A stretch of DNA of 63,446 nucleotides, counting the filler, from Dugesia japonica (lineage: Eukaryota), in the NCBI GenBank assembly GCA_001938525.1. It is 6 parts of 6 records of this genome, joined end to end, with 100 filler letters (N's around TTAATTAATTAA, not from the genome) between each part and the next. Parts side by side here need not be neighbours in the genome. Positions count along the whole stretch, not along the records: positions 31,665 to 41,255 come from MQRL01624836.1; 5 more parts are not named here. One strand, given 5' to 3'. Positions 28,236-51,213 of this stretch are shown piece by piece. Numbering within the stretch: position 1 is the first letter of the stretch; each line of letters opens with the position of its first letter. Both the position numbers and the translations under genes were made by a program. Under the pieces are notes generated by a model. It ran no database searches. It was not told where the DNA came from and was given only the letters and a program-made list of their open reading frames with translations.

Positions 28236-29199
28236 AATTTTCGATTTTTTTTATATAATTTTTTGAAAAATTTTTTAGGCTTGTACTGTAAAAGGCTTCA
28301 TGCTGTCTATATCTATATACTTTCACATTATTTTTTAAAATATTATTTTTACTATTATTTTAAAATTAAGTTTGTTTGAATAATATCGGCAATCCATTAT
28401 TTTTCAATTTTCAAGAAATATTTCAATCATAGTCGTCACCTAAATTTTTATTGGATATTTTGATAATAAGGCATATTTTGATAAAAACACATCTTGATAA
28501 CAAGGTACAGCTTGATTAACAGGAATATTTGGAACAGCGGTCATATTTTGACAATAAGTCATATTTTTATTATTTTGCATTTTGTTATAAATCTAAATAA
28601 AAAATTAGAAATGTCTTACTAAGTAAATGTTTTCTAGAATTATGTTCAAATAAATTATATGCTCCGTTTATATACCAAATGGGTACATAATTAAAACAAA
28701 TAATTTAAATGTAAATTGAAACAAAACAAAAATATTTTTCATATCAGTTTTTATTAATAATAACTTAATTAATATTTAAATAATATACAATAATAAATAA
28801 AACTTTACAAGATATAATAATTAAATAACATCCGGTAACGAAATGATTAAATCAATTAACAGAAATAGAAATACTTAATTCTACTAAGGAAAATTAAAAT
28901 TAAATAATTAAATCAAGAAAAAAATTAAAATTTGAACCAAAATTTTGACAATGAAATTTAAAACAAATAATTAAGCCAAATAATGAAAATGAAATGTAAA
29001 ATAAATAACTAGACCAAATAACTAGACTCTATAAAAACCAAAAATTAATCGTAATCAATCGCATGAGACCGTGATCGAGTTCCCGAGAGATCAAATCAAC
29101 ATATGGTTCTCTGTTCATTCACCGCACTGCTATCATCGTTTGACATCACTTCCGTCTCCGTATTTCCTTGTCCAGAATTTAAATTTCACCACTGGATGT

Positions 29200-31039: not shown

Positions 31040-31451
31040 TTAACATATATTTAATTTTTATGTTGTCAACATATCCATGATAATGTAAATTCTTGAGACC
31101 AAATATGACAACTTTTCCAGATGAAAATACATTAACACATATAGTATCATATTTTGTAAGACGTAATGCTAGAAACAATTCATGTTCAAACCAACATTTT
31201 ATTATCTTTACCAATTTTTACAAATTAATTTGATTAAAATGATTACGATTGTTAACGATTGCAACCGAATGGTTTTAATATCGTATTGTAACTTGTTCAT
31301 TACTATTGGTTCTTTGAATCCCATTATTTGAAAGTTCCCGGATTTAACGAATACTCAAGTATATTTTCCACTTTGTCAACTAATTGTGAAGGTTTTCCAA
31401 TTGAAAATTTCATTTGGAAACTTTCCCTTTGTAATTAATATTAGCAATCAT
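31040..31451 (-). pseudogene. TBP-like gene, copy 1 (disrupted)
   Basis: MIANINYKG..MKFSIGKP..FVKSGNFQIMG..IRLQSLTIV..WFEHELFLALRLTKYDTICVNVFSSGKVVIFGLK; matches TBP YEPELFPGL and IFxSGKVVxTG. Confidence 0.75.
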
Positions 31452-31564: not shown

Positions 31565-31664
31565 NNNNNNNNNNNNNNNNNNNNNNNNNNNNNNNNNNNN
31601 NNNNNNNNTTAATTAATTAANNNNNNNNNNNNNNNNNNNNNNNNNNNNNNNNNNNNNNNNNNNN

Positions 31665-31818
31665 ATTCTGTTTGAGATCCATTTATAAAAAACTCTACAT
31701 CGCTTTGTGATTCAGAAATTGAATTCATAGGAAAGACACCTTCGAAAGTACCACTTTCAATTACAGCTTGAGGAGATGATCGATCAAAAATAAATAATTC
31801 AGTTTTACCGCAAATCAT
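31665..31818 (-). CDS. Polinton major capsid protein (double jelly-roll/hexon-like), N-terminus
   Basis: MICGKTELFIFDRSSPQAVIESGTFEGVFPMNSI..DVEFFING matches the Polinton MCP start (C.KSELDLF..P.Q..IE.G...P...IEF.I.G); truncated by the gap. Confidence 0.8.
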
Positions 31819-31819
31819 T

Positions 31820-32258
31820 TATCAAATATTGTTCCATGACGTTTCATTCGTTTGTTTATACGTGATGCATGTGATTTTTTGCTTTTTTTATTAGTTGGTT
31901 CTGTTTTAGATTGATTCTTTAGCATATTAATTATTTCAGAAGGGATTTTTTTTAGTTATACTTTGTGGAAATATACTCGCTACTTCTGGAATCATACTGG
32001 ATACTCCAGTAGATAGAAAGAAACTACATTTCCAAGTTCAGCTAATGCATTTGATTTTAATGTGGTTAGTATATTTCCGTCATTAGCTAGTACATCCTGA
32101 GCTGTTTTCATACCAAAAGAACCAATACGTCTAAGAATAGGTAAAGCAAATCTCCCTATTTTTCGTAACCAACCAGATCCATATTGTTTTCCAAGAAAGT
32201 AAGGTAATTCTCCACCTGCATGACTAGTACTATACAATGATACAATATCAGGATTCAT
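31820..32258 (-). CDS. Polinton/adintovirus core protein (pX-like)
   Basis: AGGELPYFLGKQYGSGWLRKIGRFALPILRRIG amphipathic basic segment, located between penton and MCP; basic tail after a frameshift. Confidence 0.7.
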
Positions 32259-33326
32259 TATTAAATTTTCTAAAATGTAACGTTAAATGTGTTTTTGAAT
32301 GTTGAGCAAAGTTGATTAGTTTTCCACTATCATCACGTATATTAATTTCTATATTGTTTATATATGATGAAGAAATATGTAAATACATTGGATGATCAAC
32401 AATTATTTGAACTACCTCATCATTTTCAAGTTCTTATATCCATACTGCTTTCAATAAAGAAACATTAACATCCCCTATAATTATAGGTTCAACAATGCTA
32501 CAATAGATGAACATTTCATTATAACACTTTAACATTTTAGGTTTCTTATTACTTTTATATAGCAGTTGTTTATCATTAATTTGTATTCGAGTATATTGCG
32601 ATTCTTTTAATCCTAATGATTTTGTTAAGATTTTATCGAATTTAACACTTTTAGTTCTGTTTGCCAATGTAAATTTGAATCGTTTATCTTGCTTTCATGA
32701 AAACGTTTTAAATAACACTGGAAAGTGTTTCTTAATATAATCATTATGTTGTTTTATATCTTTTATATACAATTCGAATTCGAATTGAAAAGCATGTTTA
32801 TTTACAATCGGATAATAATATTTAATTTTTTCAATTGTATCATCGTCTTTAAAGTGGTGAAAGCCAAGAAAAAATGTTTTATCTCCAAAATTCTTACTAG
32901 TATAAAAAACTAATGTATCCTCATCACTTACATATTCACCGCTAAAACGTAAAAATATCTTTATAGTTTCCCGATTTTCAAATAATAAACTGTGGTAAGT
33001 AATATCACTAGAAAAACTTAACGTTTTCTTTCGATCATCGTATAACTGTTTCCTTGTTATTTTTATATTTGTCTTGATAATTAACAGTTAAAAGAATTTT
33101 CTTTTCTTTATTGTATTATTTCCTTCTCAATTAGTTTAAGTAATTCATATTCAATCCTTGATTGACTGTAAATCGGCTTGGCTGAATATACAAAGGCAAC
33201 TTCCCATCCACCATCCATTTAAATTGGATTTTGAAGCTCATCAATGTAATTACTAGAAATATTATTTAGATGAATTAGTAGACTGCTATTACTAGGTAAA
33301 AGTGTAAAGAAATTATTAGATTTCAT
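32248..33326 (-). pseudogene. Polinton minor capsid protein (penton-like)
   Basis: FFTLLPSNSS..NPI*MDGGWEVA at the start; FIYCSIVEPIIIGD..LLK..PMY..IEINIRDDSGKLINF..LTLHFR at the end. Confidence 0.85.
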
Positions 33327-33329
33327 CGT

Positions 33330-33739
33330 AATTTGCGTCTTGTTTGTCTATTTGTATTGGTAATATCCAACTTGGATTTCGTATTCATATCATTTTACAT
33401 AGTATTGTTTAGTCTTTCAGTTCCCTTAGATTAAAATGCAACAGCTATTGTAAATCTATTGAATACAAACGATAAATAACAAAAATATACTTGTAAAATT
33501 TATTAATCTTTGAGTCTAGAATCATTTTCATTAGATACATTTTACCATAAATCATCAATACTATGTGCTTTATATGCTCTTGTTGGAAATTCTTTCAACA
33601 TTGACTTGTTCAGGCTGTACGCTAGCTGTACAGGTAATCACCTTTTCGTCTTTCTTTGCTTTTTTTGATCTGCTTTCATCAACTTCTTTACTCTTTAAAG
33701 ACCTGCTAAGTTTTTTGGATTTGTCTATATTGTTTTCAT
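33330..33739 (-). pseudogene. Polinton integrase, internally deleted (N-terminus plus chromodomain remnant)
   Basis: MKTI*TNPKNLAG..*LPVQLAYSLNKSMLKEFPTRAYKAHSIDDLW; QYYVK*YEY..SWI chromodomain-like end. Confidence 0.75.
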
Positions 33740-33864
33740 TTTTCGCTCCATTACAATCTGAAGCAAATTTCAGGTTAAAGTTAGGTAATGATTGCAATCC
33801 ACCTATTGCTCATTTGAGTTAATTATTAATATTACTGTTATAAAGTCAACCATTGCTTATTTAA

Positions 33865-34163
33865 AATGAGCTAAGCCTAATGCAGCCCTTGAAATTGGTA
33901 GCCCTCTCCTTGATGGTTCATTACTCGTCTCATTGATTTTCTATTTTTTGTGTTTACAAGCTTTAATAAAGCCTTTTTAATGTTTTTTCAATGTTTTCTT
34001 TTTGGCTGCACTCAAATCTACATTGTCACGAACAATATTTATAATAATTGTAATTAAATAATCTATAACATATGGTGGGAATGATTGCAAAATTCTTGTT
34101 CTAAAAGGTTTTGATTATTTAATAAAAGCTGTAAAAAACAGAATGATTCTTTGTAGTTTCATC
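33865..34163 (-). pseudogene. Polinton pVII-like core protein
   Basis: FPPYVIDYLITIIINIVRDNVDL..KLVNTKNRKSMRR..QG; homologous to 38337-38621. Confidence 0.7.
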
Positions 34164-34198
34164 TTTTTTCATTTAAATAATACATACCATTAATTTGT

Positions 34199-34435
34199 TT
34201 ATAATAATCTATATTTTTTGTTCATCATTTTTAGCTTCTTTCCACTCTTTTTTGTATGTTTTTTAAACATATTCATTTGTTTCCTTTTATTTACTTGTTG
34301 CTTCTTATTTATATGATGTTTCTTATTCGAATGTTTCTTCTTTTTTCCATACTTTTTCTTCTCAAAAGATATTTTTTTATGTTTAATAAGACCATCAGTT
34401 ACTTGATTAACTATAAATGTTTTTAATTTTGTCAT
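34199..34435 (-). CDS. Small lysine-rich Polinton ORF
   Basis: Intact 78-aa, extremely basic ORF between the ATPase and the pVII-like gene, co-oriented with them. Confidence 0.5.
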   Translation of the reverse strand: MTKLKTFIVNQVTDGLIKHKKISFEKKKYGKKKKHSNKKHHINKKQQVNKRKQMNMFKKHTKKSGKKLKMMNKKYRLL

Positions 34436-34562
34436 TTTTAAAATATTATGAAAAATTACCTGATTTTTTTATATACTNNNNNNNNNNNNNNNNNNNNNNN
34501 NNNNNNNNNNNNNNNNNNNNNNNNNNNNNNNNNNNNNNNNNNNNNNNNNNNNNNNNNNNNNN

Positions 34563-35090
34563 GAGGTTTTTTGTTTCATCTTGAAATAATTCAATAAAAA
34601 GGTGTCTCTTATTTGGATATGCTTGTCTTGCTGGAAAATCAACAACAGTTTAATCTATAGGATTTTTGAATAGAACCAAATATTGTACGTTTCAATTACG
34701 GGTTCTACGACTATCCCCTTGATAAAATAGATTTTGGGTAATAAATATAACAGCCATATTACAATGTCTCAATATTTTTGTGAACAAATTATTGAAATCT
34801 TTTTCTTTATTTGCCTCCTGATACAGATCATCAACAATAATAACATCACTTGGTCTTAATCTTTTGCTCCAATTAGAATCAAAACCATTTATAATTTTTT
34901 TTAATACTACAAAATTCAGATTTAGTCAATCCATGCTACTCACCTGTACCCATATGCCAGTATATGTTTTTAAATTTTGACTTGAATAACTTTGATTTCA
35001 ATAATTGCCATACAAACAGTTTTTTCCGGCTACCACTAGGTCCAACAATTTGATAGACTGCATCATTTCTTAATTTCTCTATCTTGTTTT
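34563..35090 (-). pseudogene. Polinton packaging ATPase (A32/FtsK-HerA family)
   Basis: IVGPSGSRK Walker A; VIIVDD Walker B; LFTKILRH..VIFITQNLF; YLVLFKNP..ARQAYP. Confidence 0.9.
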
Positions 35091-35180
35091 ATTTTATTTT
35101 TACATTATTTAAATGTATTTTAACGAATAAATTAAATTAACTAGATCAAAACCCCAATGTTCATCATTAATTCATTAATT

Positions 35181-35625
35181 ATGATAACCAATATTAATTA
35201 CCGAGGTGAAATGTCGCAAGAAGTAACAAAGAAAATGAGCTTTTCTATAGGCAAACCATGTCAATTTCAAGTCCAAAGTGATAAATTTACAATTATAATC
35301 TTCAGATCTGGAAAATGTAGAATAACGGGTTGTAAGAAACCATTGAAGCCGTATGATTTGAACCCCTATGATATAAAAAATGTACAATTAAAATCGTTAA
35401 CAATTGTCGTAAATATGATAGTTTCAATAAATGTTTATAAATTAGCAATAATAGTCAACTGTTTGTTCGAACCAGAGTTATTTCCCGCTCGTAAAATATA
35501 ACCCTTTATATGTAAATGTGTTCTCAACAGGAAAACTAATAATATTTGGACTTAAAAATTTATATTTTCAAGGATATGTGAATAAAATTACTTCAAATCT
35601 ATTCAATTTGCTTGATAAAATTTAG
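35181..35625 (+). pseudogene. TBP-like gene, copy 2 (one frameshift near 35490)
   Basis: MITNINYRG..IIIFRSGKCRITG..LKSLTIVVNM..INVYKLA..FEPELFPA / VKYNPLYVNVFSTGKLIIFGLK..LDKI*: two TBP repeats. Confidence 0.82.
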
Positions 35626-36318
35626 AAAATTCGCAGCACGGATGCAAAACCTTTACAATTCAAGTACAAAAAATAGATATTTAAATTTCAAATAATTAAT
35701 ATATTATGTTGTGGTTTTTATTATGTATATATATAATACATTTCATTATTATTTCTTGTAATTAAAAAATGAATTCATCAAATACAGGAAAAATGAAGAT
35801 AATGGAAGAGCAATTTAGTAAAGGAGATTGGTAATTTATTAATTATATGATTTTATTACTAAAATTTATTTAGGATTGCTTACAGACAAATTAGAAAAAC
35901 GAAGAATGCTCGATAAAGAAAGAAAACCGATGCCCTCGGACTCTATTGTTAATCAGTACATGGATGCTTGGATAATTGTTTTTCATTTTTTTTATAATTA
36001 TTAAATTAAATAAGGTTTTTTAAAATACTAAGTAAACAACATTTTGAATAAATTAATGCGCGATAATTTATTTTATGAACATACATTTTGTAGGGTGACC
36101 TCTTATTACACCGTTAATATGTAAATAATATACTCATAAACCATCTAATACAAGGTTACTGTGTAAATAATGTATTCATAAACCTTATAATAGATGGTTG
36201 CTATGTAAAAATACAAGAAAGAAACAAAATTATTATTCAAATCTATTTATTAATCAACAAAATAATAATAATTACATTAATTCCAACCAAAGAAATAAAA
36301 TATCACAATGGATGACAA

Positions 36319-36582
36319 TCAAGTTACAACAATAAATTTATTTCTCTTTTTGATCTTCAATTCGTCCTTAATTTTGTCCATAAATATTGATCGTACAATG
36401 AATTCAACATATTCATGTTTGCTCAATAGACCATTGCCGATCCTGCTTAGGAATTGAATGCCATCAACGGATCCACTGGTAATTTTATCTGCCAATTTTT
36501 TAATCTCTCTTTCCACTTGATTCATTTCGTCAATGGATCCACTGGTGATTGCATCTGTAATTCCTCTTTCGACTTGGTTCAT
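36319..36582 (-). CDS. Small unknown ORF with an internal duplication and an upstream TATA box
   Basis: Intact 87 aa with MNQVER..ITSGS repeated twice; two TATATAAA upstream on the minus strand; flanked by related repeat arrays. Confidence 0.5.
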   Translation of the reverse strand: MNQVERGITDAITSGSIDEMNQVEREIKKLADKITSGSVDGIQFLSRIGNGLLSKHEYVEFIVRSIFMDKIKDELKIKKRNKFIVVT

Positions 36583-36749
36583 TTTAATAATTGTAAAAGT
36601 GACTTATTTTACGAAACCTGCTGTTTATATACTTGTTGTTTATATACAAACTCGTTATATGTTAGTTTTTATTGGTTGTTACATGCTTTAAAGGAAATGA
36701 ATGGTTATTATTAATTTTAATTTAATTGATTGGGTGTAATTTGTTTTAA

Positions 36750-36955
36750 ATGACAAGGTAACTATGCAAATAATACACTCATAAACCCTATAATACAGGG
36801 TTTAGCGTACAGCCATGTAAGTAATACAAGGTAACTATGTAAATAATATACTCAGAAACCCAATATTACAGGGGTACTATGTAAATAATGCATGTTTGCT
36901 ATGTAAATAATACAAAGTAACTATACAAATAATATACTCATTAATCCTATACAAT
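36750..36955. repeat. GTAACTATGTAAATAATATACTCATAAACC repeat array (also 36115-36210)
   Basis: Several diverged direct copies on both sides of the 36319-36582 ORF. Confidence 0.7.
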
Positions 36956-37689
36956 CATAAAAATATTTTCTTATAAGTTTTTATATAGACTTATTTGTTA
37001 TATATGGAAAGGTTCCATGAATTTATGATTTTTATGAAAAAATGTTCTATGTTTTTATCATATTGTTCTCAGAAATGTTCTTAGCTAATATGCTTTTATT
37101 AAAAATTGCATGATTAATGTTTTTTTTGTATAGAAAATTGTCACTGGTAATGTTTTTTTATAGAAAATTATCTAGCTAATATGTTTTTATGACACAAGTT
37201 CTATGTTTTTATCATCAAAGAAAAGTTTTAATTTGAATATTTTATCATATAAATATCACAAAGACTCCCCTCTTTTAGTTTTTTGATAGATATATTTTAT
37301 CTTTGGTTATTTTTAATAGTTATATTTTATGAGATTCTAAAGGATTCCATATTTGCAGCAGCTGAAGAATATGAAAATACAGCGTAACTATGAACACAAT
37401 ACATAAAAAAATTTCAAATTAATATTATATAAATTTCATATTAGCATAATTGCATTTAATATTAAAAATTATAATATGAAATTAAAATTTTTAAACACAA
37501 TTATGGTAATTAAAATTAAACAATCAATATATTTATTGATTGTTTAATTCAAATTACCATAATTGTAATTATAACGAGTTTGTTATGAAAATAAAAATGG
37601 CGAGTTTATTATTTTCTTTATATGTTAAATTTGAAATGAATATTTTTTAAAAGTTAACTTAATGTTAATGTTCAGTGATTTGTATGATT

Positions 37690-38276
37690 ATAACTATCGA
37701 TTACTTTCGGTAATACATGTATCCAGGTTTTATTAACAGTAAGTACAAAGTACTTTTTCAATGCATCTCTCAATGTTCTATTAAATCTTTCAACATATGC
37801 TGCTTTGTATTGTGAAAANNNNNNNNNNNNNNNNNNNNNNNNNNNNNNNNNNNATATTCTTAACTTTTGAATTATAAAATTCTTTTCCTAAATCAGTTTG
37901 CAAATTATCTGGATGACCGTTGTTAAACATTATCTTGATTGCAGCTTCCATTTCGATAAATAATTTTGATTTTATAGGTACATCTCTTGCAAATCTACTA
38001 AATACATCGATATATGTTAAAATATACTTGTATTCTTTATTAATTCTTGAATATGGAATCATCTCCATCAAATCCATTTGTCATAAATCATCAATACCAT
38101 ATGTTTTATACGGTTTTGTTGGGAATCTTTTCAACATTGGTTTGTTCAGATCGTACGCTAACTGGATCGATAACCACTGTTTCATTTCGCTTTTTGAATT
38201 TTTTGTTGCTTTCTATAACTTTTCCACTCCTTTGAACCCTGTTGGATTTTTTGAGTCTGTCCATATTGTTTCCATT
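37690..38276 (-). pseudogene. Second Polinton integrase (rve) fragment
   Basis: METIWTDSKNPTGFKGVEKL..WL..DL*QMDL..YILTYIDVFSRFA..LQTDLGKEF..VERFNRT. Confidence 0.9.
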
Positions 38277-38336
38277 ACAACCGTTTGAGAAAAACCTTAG
38301 ATAAATTTGTGATAATGACTCTAAATTACACATTTT

Positions 38337-38621
38337 TTATAATATATTTTTGAATCCTAATGCTGCTAATGCTATTGGTAATAATGCAGCAATGAATTCA
38401 CCCTTTTGTTTATAGATTATTTTTCTCATTAATTTCTTATTCTTAGTTTTTACAATTGAAAGAAACGGCTTTTTATGATGTTGTAAAATAAGGTTTTTAT
38501 CTTGGTTGAGAATTACATTTCCTCGAACAATATTTACAACAATCTCTAATAAATCATCAATAACAAACTTTGGAAANNNNNNNNNNNNNNNNNNNNNNGA
38601 CTCTTGTGGAGCTTTTAACAA
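38337..38621 (-). CDS. Second Polinton pVII-like core protein
   Basis: EIVVNIVRGNVIL..KQKGEFIAALLPIAL, upstream of the integrase as in the first copy. Confidence 0.7.
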   Translation of the reverse strand: MLKAPQEXXXXXXXXFPKFVIDDLLEIVVNIVRGNVILNQDKNLILQHHKKPFLSIVKTKNKKLMRKIIYKQKGEFIAALLPIALAALGFKNIL

Positions 38622-39009
38622 TAATTTTAAATAAGAAAAAGTTATATAGAAAAAACAAATACTTTATTTGAGAGTCCCCGAGGAACATTACAAAATAATA
38701 AAAAACACAAGTATATATCAAAATTAAAAATGATAACGAAATTTTTAAAACTAAAATTTATTTAATAAAAAATCTGATCAATCAGTCTGTTTTGTTTGTT
38801 ATCTGGTTAACTTTTTCAAACTTTTTTATGTGATGATTATTTTTAGACTTTTTAATTGGTAATAATTTCAAGTTTCTTAGTTAATGATTATTTTTAATCT
38901 ATTTAGTTGGTGATAATTTTTAAGACTTTTAGATTGCGAAAGTAGATCAATCAATCCCTAGAGTACAATTTCATTTAAATTAGTTAATCTCATATGATAA
39001 AAACACAAG

Positions 39010-39870: not shown

Positions 39871-41749
39871 ATCATCTACCTATTGATTATCCAGTTAATG
39901 GTTTAATCTGTTCATCACTTATACCTCATAGTCAACCCTATATTCACACTGACGATATAGTTTACCATTAATAACCGGTTAATTATTCAAATATTTTCAC
40001 CTTAATATAGAAAATAGAAAATAGTCTTTGAAAATGGACCTTCAAATAGGCTTTAATAACCAATTAATCATCAATTTGTAATATAAATTTATTCTTTCTT
40101 TCATTGAAATTCTAACGAATTCTTCATGAACCTAAAATTTAATTTTGAAATTAATAAATTAATTAAATTTTCAAAGACATTTTATTCAATCAATTAAAAT
40201 TTAGAATCAACATAAACAAAATTTTAAATAAATCTTAAATATTATTAAATATTTAATACATTAAGTATTTATAATACACGAATAAAATATTGTAATATCC
40301 TAATGGAAAATAAAAAATTTTCTTTATTTTTTAACTAAATAAGTTTTTTATTCTTTATAATTAATTTTAAATACTATTAAAAATTTTCTTTAATGTTAAA
40401 GCTTTTTTTTATAAAGTAGCATCTAACACAAGGTGGCCCCCGTTAGGACCACCAACTTTTAAAAGTGAAAAATTTATACCCCCATATTTTCAGGCTTTAT
40501 CAAATAAAAGGAAGATTTATTTTCGACACGTATAAAAATGTTTATACTCAAAATGGGATTAATTGCCATTTATGTTTTTTCGGGAAATTAAATATCTCGA
40601 TAATTTTACGCTTTCAAAGATGCGATGCCTAAGCGGAATGTCACGCAAGGCGGCAATTTTTCATAACACAAATACAATAAATATATATACAAAATTAATG
40701 TTTCACGAAAAAATTTGTAAATAAAAGCATGGAACAGGCGCTTTAAAATTTTCGCCGAATGTGATTTTACTCCATTTATCTTTTTAAAAATAATTTAGCC
40801 TAATTTTCCGCATTATGAAGCTAAATAATCTCGCAAATTTTATTTTGGTTTTTACAAATGTCGAGCGTTAATACTCATTTTAGAAGAATGGATGGCCATA
40901 GATAATACTTTAGCTCTTTAATAATTTAACTTAAATAAAAAACTATATATTTAGAACCAACAACATTGGACTTTATTTTAGTCGCCAATATTCCAATAAA
41001 AAGAGAAAGAGGAAAAAGTGGTCCTTATAAAGTTTATGATGTTTCTAAGTTCAAGAAAAGGGACTTCTTTAAAGTTTATGAAGTTTTTGTACTCAAGAAA
41101 AAGGAAATAAAATTTACAAGAACAATATTTGGATAAATTTTATTTTAGCTTCTAAAAAAGGTCAATACCTAATTCTCATTAACACTTTACCTTTTGAAGA
41201 ACATCAATTTAGAGACGATTTATTTAGTGAATTAATAGTAGATGATTTTAATCGCNNNNNNNNNNNNNNNNNNNNNNNNNNNNNNNNNNNNNNNNNNNNT
41301 TAATTAATTAANNNNNNNNNNNNNNNNNNNNNNNNNNNNNNNNNNNNNNNNNNNNAAATTTACCTCTTCGTAACTAAAATTTTTTGTCAAAAATTAATTT
41401 ATGTTTTGCTTTATCTGCCGATTTGATTACCTGGTTGCAATTATATAATTGTCCAACCAATCAAATAGTATCTAACAGATAGCATTTTAAAATGAACATA
41501 TATCACCAAATTTGGACATTCTTAATTTTGCAAGAACAATCTCTCGTGTGACTGTTATTAGTCACACTGATGAAATAATTTAATGGCTGTAAACAAAGGC
41601 CAATTAAGAAAAATATAATTATTATTATATTTTATTATTATTATACTTACTATTATACTTATTATTATTTTTTTTCTTAATTATTATTTAACTGGGTATT
41701 ATTATCATATTATTATAAAAACATAAAAGAAAATAAGGTTTGGGATAGG

Positions 41750-44310
41750 ATTCACATAAACCCTCACACCTGTAAAGCTGTCTCCCGAATACTAACTCTT
41801 CTGGACCACATTTTGTAGTTTTCTGTTTAGTCACATTAAGTGTAAACTCTACTTCCGACAGGATTTCTTCCCAATCAGTAATTCTTCTTTCTCGCATTGA
41901 TGAGTTCAACAGATCCATAATCGTCCAAAATTTGCTTTCAATTTGACCGTTAGTCTTATGATGATATGGACTTGACACTTGCCATGTAATCTTTGCTTTA
42001 TCTTCGAACTCTTTCATTTCTTTTCTTTTAAATACCCTCCCGCAATCAGAACGTATNACTCTTGGACATCCAAACTTCAGAATCCAATGCTTTATAAATA
42101 TCGTTTCGAATCTTAACGTTATCCTGTATAGTTAAACTCAATAATACTGCAAACTTTGTAAATTGCTCAATCATGTCAAGGATGTATTTCTTCCTATTCT
42201 TCGTATCCTTCAATAGGTCACAAATATCTATAAACATCACTTCAAACGGAGCAACACTGTCTGATTCTTTGGGTATTTTGCGTCTTTTACTTGTCGAAAC
42301 TTTGGATTTTTGACAGAAAATATAGCTTCTTATAATCTCTTTAATTCTTGATCTTAACTGTTTCCTTTCGTATCTTGAGAAAATATATTCCTCCGATTTC
42401 TCTATGCCTGCATGACATAATGATTTATGAATCTCCATAATCTTCTGCTCAATTATCTCCAAGTCTTCTTCAACATTTTATTTCCGCTTCTACTCATTTA
42501 TTCTCTCAATTTTTCCTAGTCTCTTAGTCTTTAATTTTCACATCTTTGCCTCCTCATTTATCAATTGGCACTGAACGTATTTGTCACAGTTCAATTTACT
42601 TAATCCATTTGCATTGCCATGATTCTAACGTTTTCTGAATTCTAATTTTATCTCCAAACTATCTAGGAAATTAATCCAGATTTGTAATCGGCTTTTTTGT
42701 ATGCAACATGAACGTGATCGCTTTGTTATCCATTCTTAAAATAAATCGTCTGTATAAATAATGTCTAAAGTTTAAACAAAAGTAATATACTGTCAGTAGT
42801 TCCTTACGAGTTATGCAGTATCTTTGCTCATAGGTAGACAATGCATGAGACCGGTACGTTATGACTCTTTAATTTCCGTCTTCATCCCTCGCGACAGCAC
42901 TGCACTAATTGTTCCGAAGCTCGTATCAGTTTCTAAAAAAAACTCTTCGTGCAGATTTGTATATGCTAAAATTGGTGTAGAGATTAAAGCCTTCTTCATT
43001 TCTTTAAACACATCCGATAACTCTAAAGACCAAACTATCTTTGTATTACCTTGACTGCTACATAGTTGCTCTAATTTTCTAGCTTTATTTGCATTTCCAT
43101 GATTGAACTGTCTATAATAATAACACATGCCCAGGAAGCTATGTAATTTCATCACACATGATGGTTTTCCAAAACCTTGAATAGCTTCTATTTTTACCGA
43201 ATCCATATGAATTCCTTCTGAACTGATAATGTATCCTAAGAATTTAATTTCTTTCTGAGCACTTTTCTGGGTAAATAATGCCTGTCTCACTAATGTTGTC
43301 CAACACTCTTTTTAAGATTTCATAATGTTCCTCTCGTGTCTTAGAAAAAATTAATATATCATCTAAATATACCATTGATCCCTTGATGTCTTTCATCAAC
43401 TTTGCCAGCAGCTCATGAAACGTATCAGACGCTGCTGCTATCCCAAACAGCATTCTGTTGAAACAGTACTGACCCTGTTTAGTTGAGAATGCTGTCTTTT
43501 CCTGCAATTCATTGTCTAACTCTACTTGGTAATAAGCATTACCAAGATCTATTGTGCTGAAGTAAGTCATCCAATACAACATATCTAGCATCTCTTCGAT
43601 ATTTGGCATTGAAAACACCTGTTTCTCTGTAATAGCGTTCAGCTTCCTGAAATCTAAACATAACCGGAGATCCTGTTTATCTTTTGTCCATATGCATACT
43701 AATGGTGAATTCCATTGAGAATTTCCTTGTCTTATTATTCTATTATCAAACAGGTTTTTAATTGCTTCGTCAATTTTGCTCTCCAATTTTTTCGGTTGTC
43801 TGTTGGGTTTCGTTTTCATTGGCTCTCCTATCATAATGATCTTGTGTTTAACAATATTTCCTTCCTCTCTCTGTCTACAAACCGCATTTGACTGATCATC
43901 TCCTTTCCAATTTATCGTACTGTCTGCTTTCCTCCATCGTTCGTCTGTACCAACTTGTTTCCCGAAATTAGCGTCTATATTGCAAATATACTTCTTGGAT
44001 TCTTCATTACTGCTATTTGAATCTCGTTGTATGAGTACAAATCCGAACGCATTCATGAATTCCATACTAACTATAATATCCTGTACTACTTATTGCACTA
44101 CCCAAAATAATTCCATTCTTTTCGTCCTTTCAATTGCAACGGCAATCAAATTGTACCCAATGTCCCCAATAAACTGCTGTTCGCACACCGACGTTTTATC
44201 CCGCAACATTCCACTGACACTTTCTAAACTTCGCCCAGCATTCTCTACTCATTACGTTTACTCTTGCCCCCGAATCTAACAAACAGTCCCACCACTGATC
44301 TCCCATCCCT
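41750..44310 (-). mobile_element. Ty3/Gypsy pol remnant (protease-RT-RNaseH-integrase)
   Basis: LLDSGA; WNSPLVCI..LRLCLDFRKLN; YLDDILIFS; LETDTS..GAVL-like RNaseH; HKSLCHAG..C zinc-binding motif; SSPYHHKTNGQIE integrase; PR-RT-RH-INT order. Confidence 0.95.
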
Positions 44311-49440: not shown

Positions 49441-49956
49441 TCATTTTTCTAATAAAAATTGTTTCATTTTACTTTCCTGGGCAATTGTTTTTGCCAGTTT
49501 ATTAACATAGTCATCAAATTGTTTTGAGGCACATTCAGCATTTAAGTCTTCGTTAATCAAATGGTTAAGTGATTCAATATAGCAACAAGCTATTCGTAAA
49601 ATACCTAGTTTTGACAATTTATATGAATTGTAATATGATGGTACTACTTGTCGAAGATTTTCAAAAGCTGAGCTGATTGTATGAACACGATTTCTTTCTC
49701 GGGCATTAGCTTCCATTCGACGGACTTGACGAACTTTTACTCGCTTTCTAACAGGAGAATTATTTGATTTATTTTCAGTTTTTTCACTAATAACACTTGC
49801 AGATTCAGAAAAATCAGATTGAGAATTGGATTTAGCATCACTGAACTCTACGGTTGGCTTGCGATTTGGTTCGAGATTTAGAGAAGTATTGTTAAGAATC
49901 ATCCAGGGAATTTTATTAAAATTATAAGCATTTAAATAGTCATTAGTGATCATCAT
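49441..49956 (-). CDS. atoh8: bHLH transcription factor, Atonal homolog 8 / Net family
   Basis: RRMEANARERNRVHTISSAFENLRQVVPSY..KLSKLGILRIACCYIESL is the Atoh8/Net-type bHLH (RVHTIS.AF, LRIAC.YI); intact 171-aa ORF. Confidence 0.92.
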   Translation of the reverse strand: MMITNDYLNAYNFNKIPWMILNNTSLNLEPNRKPTVEFSDAKSNSQSDFSESASVISEKTENKSNNSPVRKRVKVRQVRRMEANARERNRVHTISSAFENLRQVVPSYYNSYKLSKLGILRIACCYIESLNHLINEDLNAECASKQFDDYVNKLAKTIAQESKMKQFLLEK

Positions 49957-51213
49957 TGCGATCGAAAAATTGAAATTCTAAACAAATGAATATATATCAA
50001 ATTGAATTAATTCCGACCAATTAAAATCAAGCCAGTAATTTTAAAGCCAAAATGATAACAGATGTTACAATATTATTTAGCCGAGTACCGACAGATTGCA
50101 CTGATGCGTGTGTTGCTGTTTAACGTAGTTTTTTGTGTGCAACATCCTTATTGACATTTGATCACATGATAGCAAGCAGTTCTTTTAGATATAAATATGG
50201 TTCATTATTTTCAGAAAGATTTTTTTATTAAATTGATTGATTATACTTGGTAGCCAATTAGTTGTAAAAACAAAATTTGATACAAAAAAATAATTTCCAT
50301 TGACAAAGCGTTATTTGTGAAAATTTAGTTAACGCTAGAATTAATTTTTTTTCCATTTAAAAGAAAATTCATAAAAATCATAATTTTGAAACTTTACAAT
50401 GTTTACAGGGTATAATTTCAAATGTAATCAATCAAATACTTAGTAATTTCTAGATTCAATTTAGAAATTTATAGTTTTAGTTAATAAAATATAGTATGTC
50501 TATAGAGAGGTTGCTAATTAAAGGACGCTTTGCTTGTCTGGCTGTTTTGCACGTTACTGATCACAATAATAAAAATTTAATTCTAATATTGCGTATATAA
50601 AGATTAATTGAAAAGAAAGCCTGCAAATAGAATTTTTTAAAAAAAAATATTAACAAACTAGAAAAAAGTTGTACAAAATAAACTGCAATAGCAGTATTGT
50701 TTAAATATTATTCGAAATAAATTATGGTAAATGAATTAAATAAATAGAAAATCAATAATTTAAATATATAATTATCACATTTCCATCAAATAAAGAAACA
50801 TCAGTAAATAATTTATCGACCAACAGTTAATTTTTTATAATACCAATTAGAAAATTACTAACTTACTAAATTTTTCTGTGTAAATATTATTTAAAATAAA
50901 TAATATGAAAATAAAAAGAAATGGAAAAAATATTTAAAAATTACAAGTAGAAATAATTTACCAAGGAGTTGTGATTGAAATTCAATTATTTTTATATCCT
51001 TTTAGAAATATAAAAATAAATCAATCATAGTTTCTAAGAAAATTCTGATAGAAATTTTTCAGTCATTTGAACACGACTCCAAATTGATGTATAAATACCC
51101 GGCGCAGAATACAAAAAATAGGATAAAATAGACTTAGCTCAGAACAATGATTCATGTTAGCTCAATGTAAGATTTATAAAAAATTAAGTAATTTTTTTAT
51201 TATTTCTAGTTAG

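Follow-up and report, generated by a model that had tools for sequence, protein, structure and literature searches.

Does a Polinton carry a TATA-binding protein (TBP) of its own and, if it does, which genes would such a protein serve? The question is raised by a short broken gene in a 63,446-nt stretch of Dugesia japonica DNA (the window), which is AT-rich (26% GC) and contains many N gaps, and it matters because the timing of capsid production bears on whether Polintons should be seen as transposons or as viruses. A first-pass annotation had described a TBP-like gene of ~145 aa, interrupted by one frameshift and placed head-to-head with a packaging ATPase, and had guessed that its product could redirect or compete for host Pol II initiation, for example on late or structural promoters. 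Our analysis identifies 35181-35625 as the broken remnant of a TBP-fold gene that a broad Polinton/adintovirus clade conserves. For its intact relatives we favour, with a probability of roughly 60%, the role of an early-made TBP for late promoters, predicted to bind the box YATAAACR and to work through host TFIIB. The two features from which the analysis starts are:

35181-35625, plus strand: Polinton mini-TBP gene, copy 1, a pseudogene (PF00352 and a two-frame tblastn match to the intact homologue P0002).
34572-35133, minus strand: A32-like packaging ATPase gene, decayed, in divergent orientation to the TBP gene (58% by tblastn, E 1e-47, to the ATPases of other loci).

Copy 1 has the expected size, ~147 codons, and a single frame break near 35485-35500, just 3' of the EPELFP stirrup. 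The intact homologue P0002 (150 aa) aligns with 35181-35522 in one frame (68%) and with 35488-35622 in another (76%, tblastn). With an X at the break, the translation matches Pfam PF00352 in two stretches (E 6.9e-10; 39.1 bits for a curated cut-off of 22.9 bits) and the archaeal TBP 1mp9 at E 9.5e-10; the motifs quoted earlier for the two TBP repeats are found in the translations. The placement of the gene needs correction. Its proposed start at 35090 falls within the ATPase, and the TBP match begins at 35181. There is indeed no N run between the two genes, and the first clearly recognisable ATPase stretch lies ~90 bp from the start of copy 1, as had been stated, but the matched 5' ends are only ~50 bp apart. 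The head-to-head arrangement is real at 34572-35625, whereas in most loci of the family TBP and ATPase are on the same strand and the position of TBP varies widely between elements; as a conserved layout we therefore reject it. Identity of copy 1 is 68-71% to intact relatives of ~150 aa, compared with ~16-22% to cellular TBPs, and the spacer between its anchor motifs, which holds helix H2, is 48 residues compared with 62 in canonical TBP. Several otherwise near-invariant family columns are changed in copy 1, and its F99 column holds Phe, though this column is not conserved in the relatives. The ATPase has stops, a frame change and a damaged Walker A motif in translation, with a weak Pox_A32 match (E 0.014). 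Copy 1 is a pseudogene inside a decayed element, and both TBP copies in the window are non-functional remnants.

The region from ~21.8 to 38.7 kb consists of pieces of several decayed Polinton-type elements. For comparison we used a metagenome scan in which 126 of 269 pattern matches were confirmed and the best 80 loci kept (the 80 best loci). The following pieces lie near copy 1, the genes among them being identified by tblastn against those of these loci; minor capsid, core and pX (and DEDD below) are tentative names of our own, based on gene position:

31040-31451, minus strand: mini-TBP gene, copy 2, with several breaks and an approximate 3' end (PF00352 E 6.6e-4 on one fragment).
31666-31818, minus strand: major capsid gene of the double jelly-roll type, of which an N gap leaves the 5' end (tblastn E 1e-12).
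31818-32258, minus strand: small pX/PZ-like virion gene (tblastn E 9e-34).
31853-31860, minus strand: YATAAACR box at -42 from the major capsid ATG (31818).
32266-33341, minus strand: putative minor capsid gene, decayed (tblastn E 2e-30 and 2e-9 to a cluster in 16/80 best loci).
32355-32362, minus strand: YATAAACR box at -104 from the pX-like ATG (32258).
33460-33760, minus strand: retroviral-type integrase, 5' fragments, decayed (tblastn E 2e-14; locus homologues match rve).
33898-34195, minus strand: basic core-protein-like gene (C4core), decayed (tblastn E 3e-11).
34196-34203, minus strand: YATAAACR box at -41 from the core-gene ATG (34162).
36319-36582, minus strand: small conserved ORF, C10 (tblastn E 8e-10).
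37675-38642, minus strand: piece of a related element, with a second integrase and a core-gene fragment (tblastn E 6e-58; rve E 2e-5).

Past one N gap, the minus strand thus reads core-like, integrase, putative minor capsid, pX-like and major capsid start. The same gene order is found in L008, L014, L043 and L050, though here all genes are broken. C4core has no Pfam match, and its cluster occurs in 20/80 best loci; the C10 cluster (11/80) adjoins TBP in other Polinton loci. The second integrase piece is 73% identical to the first copy at the nucleotide level and has a YATAAACR site at 38407-38414. Copy 2, which the first-pass annotation does not mention, matches another family member, P0007, at tblastn E 1e-34, and blastn finds no match between copies 1 and 2 at E 1e-5; copy 2 does not appear to be a recent duplicate of copy 1. 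It is separated from the major capsid start by N gaps (31565-31664), and lies downstream of that start across the gaps, a place that TBP also takes in L043 and L082. Within this scaffold with its many N gaps, we found no long inverted pair flanking the region and no AGTAGT end nearby that could represent the terminal inverted repeats and 6-bp target-site duplication of a Polinton. At lower coordinates, 21800-28300 is apparently a different Polinton. Its pPolB (24199-27880, minus strand) has N-terminal C2H2 fingers and is 30-39% identical to the enzymes of TBP-bearing elements, and may belong to another element; the plus-strand ORFs at 22325-24124 match no gene of the TBP-bearing elements, one of them having a faint likeness to protease (E 0.004). 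Repeat arrays, of 42/73 bp at 36094-36951 and of 35 bp at 28007-28211, sit at the edges of Polinton pieces and are possibly subterminal repeats.

Since both copies are broken, the gene has to be judged from its relatives. One search gave 53 candidates, of which 38 were relatives; the top one has 71% identity and ~150 aa. A profile search returned at least 150 proteins, most of them of the mini-TBP kind, and a third search 89. Family members are mostly 145-200 aa, and long-type TBPs are also present among the metagenome loci; a phage collection gave no match, and neither did a viral-contig scan with a single long-type query. The suggestion that homologues are linked to Polinton genes is borne out: a hallmark gene (ATPase, integrase, capsid, protease or pPolB) accompanies TBP in 42/80 best loci, rising to 28/37 for loci of at least 3 kb and 22/25 for those of at least 4 kb. 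By gene, the ATPase is found in 30/80 (Pox_A32 E 5e-6), the retroviral-type integrase in 17/80 (rve E 1e-12 to 2e-15), the double jelly-roll capsid in 12/80, the protease in 10/80 (weak Pfam match, E 7e-4 and 9e-3) and protein-primed PolB in 9/80 (DNA_pol_B_2 E 4e-23). Among the 36 loci without hallmark, PLA2, core or pX genes, 34 have other shared ORF families, and the remaining 2, both short, have none. Pfam supports the assignments of ATPase, integrase, pPolB, PLA2 and KilA-N, and weakly that of the protease. The capsid alignment found no match in the PDB by sequence, while a model of a capsid homologue (pLDDT 63) matches the PBCV-1, Sputnik and mavirus capsids (E 8e-14). A contig fetched through its capsid alone, L082, carries an intact TBP (E 3e-46); two other contigs fetched in the same way (5.0 and 1.5 kb) have no TBP, but neither is long enough to reach the place where it usually lies. 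L082 1-12666 is a near-complete Polinton filed within a bacterial metagenome-assembled genome, where it was probably mis-binned.

Between family members, dN/dS is below 1 in 35/37 unsaturated, non-independent pairs, with a median of 0.18 (one further pair was saturated), which is what purifying selection on the TBP family in Polintons would produce and how we read it. TBP and ATPase distances are correlated (Mantel r 0.86 for 17 families drawn from 21 loci with both genes, 0/2000 permutations as high); this correlation means joint inheritance and no more, because kinship alone gives such an r. In a 65-row tree the family forms one side of a 100/99 branch opposite 14 canonical TBPs; the short forms are nested among the longer ones, in a tree that is midpoint-rooted, has a long stem and contains neither animal TBP nor TRF2. 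The first-pass annotation was right that a minimal viral TBP is Polinton-borne, and too narrow in ascribing it to this lineage, since it belongs to a broad Polinton clade. The same data bear on the alternative that copy 1 is a retrocopy or pseudogene of host TBP/TRF2 that landed beside Polinton debris. Copy 1 is indeed broken, and the scaffold is a host one, with a bHLH gene (49441-49977, minus strand; Pfam HLH E 2e-17) and a decayed Gypsy-type retroelement (41688-44279, minus strand; RVT_1 E 1e-20). However, its closeness to the intact 150-aa relatives rather than to cellular TBPs, the purifying selection on those relatives within Polintons and the tree branch all speak against such an origin, and the Polinton linkage of the relatives together with the intact TBP of L082 refutes it; we consider it extremely improbable.

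Several neighbours of TBP deserve mention. An ORF with acidic motifs resembling a DEDD exonuclease, so labelled by eye and with no Pfam match, occurs in 23/80 best loci (e.g. L024:56-646, L077:8276-8872 and 21 other loci), and is the commonest TBP neighbour after the ATPase. Other conserved ORFs adjoining TBP are L034:1588-2256 (C16), L008:1256-1882 (C5), L067:1-606 (C22) and L046:943-1794 (C18), none of which has a Pfam or Atlas match, C16 giving no usable match in the ESM Atlas; C16, with a host-type upstream motif in 5/8 families, could be an early partner. A canonical-type TBP on an unrelated large-virus contig (L001, 9635-10183), which also carries a family B polymerase and, by eye, a ribonucleotide reductase, was used as outgroup.

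What kind of TBP is this? The AlphaFold2 model of intact P0002 (pLDDT 94, pTM 0.84) is a ten-strand saddle. Its first helix has just 6 residues, and the long inter-repeat helix is missing: from strand 45-51 to strand 66-78 the chain forms no helix of 4 residues or longer. When searched with Foldseek against the PDB, all 44 of the matches listed at E ≤0.001 are TBPs, and TBPs alone appear down to E 6e-6. The two-repeat saddle is shared with cellular TBP (PF00352; 1ytb/1tbp, 1cdw, 1mp9) at TM-scores by query of 0.67-0.77, and viral TBPs in BFVD are 8-18% identical to P0002. Pfam, the model and Foldseek thus all return a TBP fold. In TBP the second-repeat stirrup binds TFIIB, and the convex surface used by TFIIA, TAND2 and Mot1 is helix H2. 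The first-pass annotation had noted the shortening of the helix between the repeats, which the family confirms, with a spacer of 46-63 residues in 69/70 complete locus copies (mostly 46-53, up to 63 in long types) and, in the P0002 model, no full-length H2; helix H1 of the first repeat is shortened too.

Residues were compared between 92 short-type proteins and a plant-type TBP, in a yeast numbering that agrees with the residues named in the excerpted text of PMC1636458 (A100, P191, I194, V203, L205) and with a DNA-contact list that agrees with Table 1 of PMC12529657. The percentages lean high, as the proteins were gathered with profiles of the same family: kept are E186 (99%), P187 (96%), E188 (98%), L189 (80%), F190 (100%) and P191 (96%), as well as F116 (98%), F207 (99%) and N69 (90%), and changed are V71N (93%), V122R (98%), T124M (100%), N159S (97%), I194R (93%), V203C (99%) and L205N (99%), with T215 also replaced. 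The claim that the stirrup and three of the four intercalating Phe are kept therefore holds for the family (F116, F190 and F207, 98-100%), and the short type has the complete TFIIB-side stirrup E186-P-E188-L189. The fourth Phe is absent as a family character: neither the 92 short nor the 37 long relatives conserve the F99 column, and the other three Phe are at 97-100% in these proteins. The canonical hydrophobic minor-groove face with N69/N159 and T124/T215 is also lost, N69 excepted. In the 37 longer proteins, which were grouped by eye, R122, M124 and N205 are at 100%, positions 71, 194 and 203 vary, and the stirrup is weaker (E186 70%, P187 41%). The backbone-contacting R196 is not conserved in the 92 short-type proteins, and because N159 and T124 are changed as well, DNA affinity may be low without partners. 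Positions I194, V203 and L205 are the three that define the altered-specificity mutant TBPm3 in the same passages of PMC1636458, and excerpts of PMC3142196 assign TAND2, Mot1 and TFIIA to the convex face of TBP.

From the 80 best loci we extracted, for each named ORF, the 100 nt that precede its first Met, dropping ORFs without an early Met or with less than 100 nt of flank, which gave 328 upstream regions and 226 family-gene pairs from 45 families with <70% TBP identity. The hexamer ATAAAC is present in 118 pairs compared with 22.7 in shuffles. Its extended form YATAAACR stands upstream of 76/101 virion-module pairs and of 0/45 TBP genes. By gene, it precedes the ATPase in 21/23, core in 14/17, major capsid in 8/10, pX in 5/5, PLA2 in 7/10, integrase in 10/16, minor capsid in 8/14, protease in 3/6 and pPolB in 1/4. 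The box is strand-specific (104 sense sites, 1 antisense) and peaks at -31 to -40 from the ATG; in a half-split test the top 6-mer recurred in 50/50, with held-out values of 0.83 sense and 0.02 antisense. Short-type (31/39) and long-type (25/39) elements both have it, and in L082 there are 10 sense and 2 antisense boxes. It is commoner just behind another gene (57/70 vs 19/34), yet is not tied to the end of the upstream gene. We also considered the box as a polyadenylation or 3'-end signal and rejected this, as TBP genes just behind another gene have it in 0/24. A host-type TATA plus an initiator-like motif, a pattern defined after inspection of the sequences, is instead found at 13/45 TBP genes and 2/101 virion genes. 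The guess of a link to late or structural promoters thus gains support from a positioned, strand-specific box upstream of virion and packaging genes that is absent upstream of TBP. Against reading it as late-only, the box also precedes genes that are not known to be late (DEDD-like 9/14, LRR 4/4).

Over the whole window YATAAACR is at chance (25 vs 22.6), which counts against it. From 31665 to 38700, however, the 7 sites all have the orientation of the genes, and three of them lie at -42 (capsid), -104 (pX) and -41 (core) from the gene starts; in other loci the box of the pX-like gene is at about -99. The decayed ATPase at 34572-35133 has no exact upstream box, its best sites having 2 mismatches. 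At 36622-36644 (minus strand) two tandem TATAAACA boxes, both of which read also as TATATAAA, lie upstream of C10, an ORF with YATAAACR in 0/5 other families. As to elements without TBP, scans of viral contigs for TBP-less Polintons with two capsid alignments and a pPolB fragment matched nothing, and an ATPase scan gave three loci without TBP (23-24%) with 1, 4 and 2 boxes, which are too remote to serve as a control. In the window, 21800-24150 has no YATAAACR on either strand, a single and weak TBP-less comparison.

How might protein and box fit together? We propose that TBP would be made early from a host-type promoter, since TBP genes are without YATAAACR and some have the host-type TATA and initiator-like motif. 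The protein would then bind YATAAACR upstream of capsid and packaging genes and hand the box to host TFIIB and Pol II, recruiting TFIIB through its intact stirrup, while loss of the convex helix would free it from control by TFIIA, TAF1 and Mot1. Passages of PMC1636458 and PMC3142196 place the 5' half of the box on the second repeat of TBP and the 3' half on the first. YATAAACR departs from TATAWAWR at base 1, and also at base 7 (C), which adjoins the kink due to F99 and F116; F99 is missing as a family character, Arg and Asn stand on the first-repeat face, and all three TBPm3 positions on the second repeat are changed. The remodelled first repeat is the half that would meet the 3' end of the box, so that the polar face and the lost F99 could suit the C at base 7, and the remodelled DNA face may also tolerate a C at base 1. 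Because the viral TBP is conserved and has a matching box, Polinton gene control becomes testable with one small protein and an 8-base motif; the protein is at the same time a natural experiment on TBP, with three altered-specificity positions changed and fixed and the regulatory surface cut down.

The box (CATAAACA or TATAAACA) could alternatively be read by host TBP/TFIID as a weak TATA element that works only on amplified viral DNA, the viral protein merely supplementing the host factor or acting elsewhere. YATAAACR is one base from canonical TATA, which counts against a dedicated factor, 69 of the 104 sense sites begin TATAAAC, and the box survey covers TBP-bearing loci; by its title, the PDB entry 1qn3 is a crystal structure of wild-type TBP with the adenovirus major late TATA in a C(-25) variant. 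However, the other 35 sites are CATAAAC, breaking the first T that Pro191 is said to require in the excerpts of PMC1636458, and ATAAA is followed by C in 95/133 cases upstream of virion genes but in 5/33 upstream of TBP-type genes. A mere supplement would not need the near-invariant polar changes on the DNA face either, and we regard host recognition as unlikely, though not negligibly so. A decoy, which would bind TFIIB or occupy host TATA boxes and so damp host transcription or antiviral genes, would account for the stirrup being the best-kept surface and for the lost convex helix, and has a precedent in the host paralogue TLF/TRF2, which according to passages of PMC3142196 can repress by sequestering a general factor. 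It leaves unexplained the dedicated box upstream of virion genes, the three intercalating Phe and the new near-invariant DNA-face residues, and seems to us improbable; of the two verbs of the original guess about host Pol II, "redirect" is better supported than "compete". We think still less of a DNA-bending role outside transcription, be it in replication, in integration or in packaging, for instance at element ends. TBP folds do bend DNA and TBP is often found beside the packaging ATPase, but its position differs widely between elements, the TFIIB-side stirrup is kept, and the enriched box is at promoter distance from start codons. The late-promoter TBP remains the reading that we prefer.

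The proposal resembles systems that are already known, namely herpesvirus TBPs with late boxes of their own and the TBP homologues of large DNA viruses. Relative to cellular TBP, the mini-TBP shares F116, F190, F207, N69 and an EPELFP stirrup of eukaryotic type, with Leu where archaeal chains have Gln, and differs in its length (~150 aa), its 16-22% identity, the missing F99, the polar DNA face, the shortened first-repeat H1 and H2 (48 residues between anchor motifs instead of 62) and in being encoded by a mobile element. Many large DNA viruses bring their own RNA polymerase; to our knowledge Polintons have none. The TBPs of Nucleocytoviricota, mirusviruses and nimaviruses share the fold, their best BFVD matches being 13-18% identical, and that of L001 and its relatives has a canonical DNA face and both helices and falls on the canonical side of the tree. 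TRF2 has lost most intercalating Phe, unlike the mini-TBP, which keeps three (TRF2 is absent from our tree). The metazoan paralogue TRF2/TLF/TBPL1 has a changed DNA specificity and still meets TFIIB in the text excerpted from PMC3142196, where it binds TFIIA and not TATA; the mini-TBP shortens the convex helix.

The closest parallel is with KSHV ORF24, EBV BcRF1 and HCMV UL87, which in the portions available of PMC12529657, PMC6541308, PMC7498053 and PMC4893493 are viral TBPs acting with TATT late promoters: a viral TBP mimic with a variant TATA box at late genes, as proposed here. The parallel is one of analogy, the box being YATAAACR rather than TATT and "late" a reading of gene type. From parts of PMC12529657, ORF24 and the mini-TBP both combine conserved Phe with a polar interface (V122, T124, V161 and L205 are polar in both), whereas ORF24 has 752 aa, keeps F99 and N159 and has its own Pol II-binding domain; a heading there predicts it to be incompatible with TFIIB, while the mini-TBP is a bare saddle with the TFIIB-side stirrup intact. 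The family members recovered, at mostly 145-200 aa, lack the large multidomain form with its Pol II-binding and extra DNA-binding domains, and structural similarity of the model to BcRF1 is weak (E 2e-3), so the likeness is probably convergent. On balance we place the mini-TBP in the TBP fold family, though not among canonical TBPs or homologues of ORF24, and consider it rather probable that it works like the herpesvirus proteins. For the more ambitious picture our leaning is slightly to the negative side: a large clade of animal Polintons would run an early/late cascade by a single 150-residue TBP of altered specificity that reads YATAAACR, recruits TFIIB and escapes TFIIA, TAF1 and Mot1, having evolved by stepwise loss of first-repeat helices and converged on the herpesvirus solution, and this would be the smallest viral pre-initiation device yet described; if that holds, the elements of this clade would be autonomous viruses with timed gene expression, and TBP and box a natural orthogonal protein-promoter pair. 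A TBP of Polinton-related elements has appeared in print as a figure-legend label, "TBP", for MELD viruses with an adintovirus-like PolB (Starrett et al. 2021; PMC8502044; preprint 10.1101/697771); in the text at hand it comes without distribution, residue or promoter analysis and possibly concerns the same family. The journal supplement text of PMC8502044 had no match for TBP or TATA, and the passages retrieved from PMC12220804 and PMC11131425 have no TBP. That label alone was found in a scope outside which lie subscription journals, Repbase reports and bioRxiv supplements.

RNA runs with the same species label (X1, X2, X5 and X9) were mapped to the TBP region. From X2, 1175 reads fit the region, 1004 of them <90% alike and hence from other copies. 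The X2 depth over TBP is 16-68 in one mate orientation and 7-17 in the other, and the lean is reversed over C10 on the opposite strand, which fits sense transcription of both genes. X1 (48 reads) and X5 (135 reads) have no clear strand lean, and X9 is made up of contigs and may include DNA. In X2, X3 and X4 the two strands of the structural genes are about equally covered, while coverage in X6 is thin; no usable start sites were obtained from reads over the TBP region or the structural genes. One sample thus contains some RNA of the TBP family, and the reads give no sign of a late programme. Reads of X2 from other copies lean antisense over the ATPase (34563-35073), which could reflect read-through or silencing precursors, and the repeat array at 36094-36951 has RNA reads on both strands. 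Elsewhere in the window, a GIY-YIG fragment lies at 12460-12777 on the minus strand.
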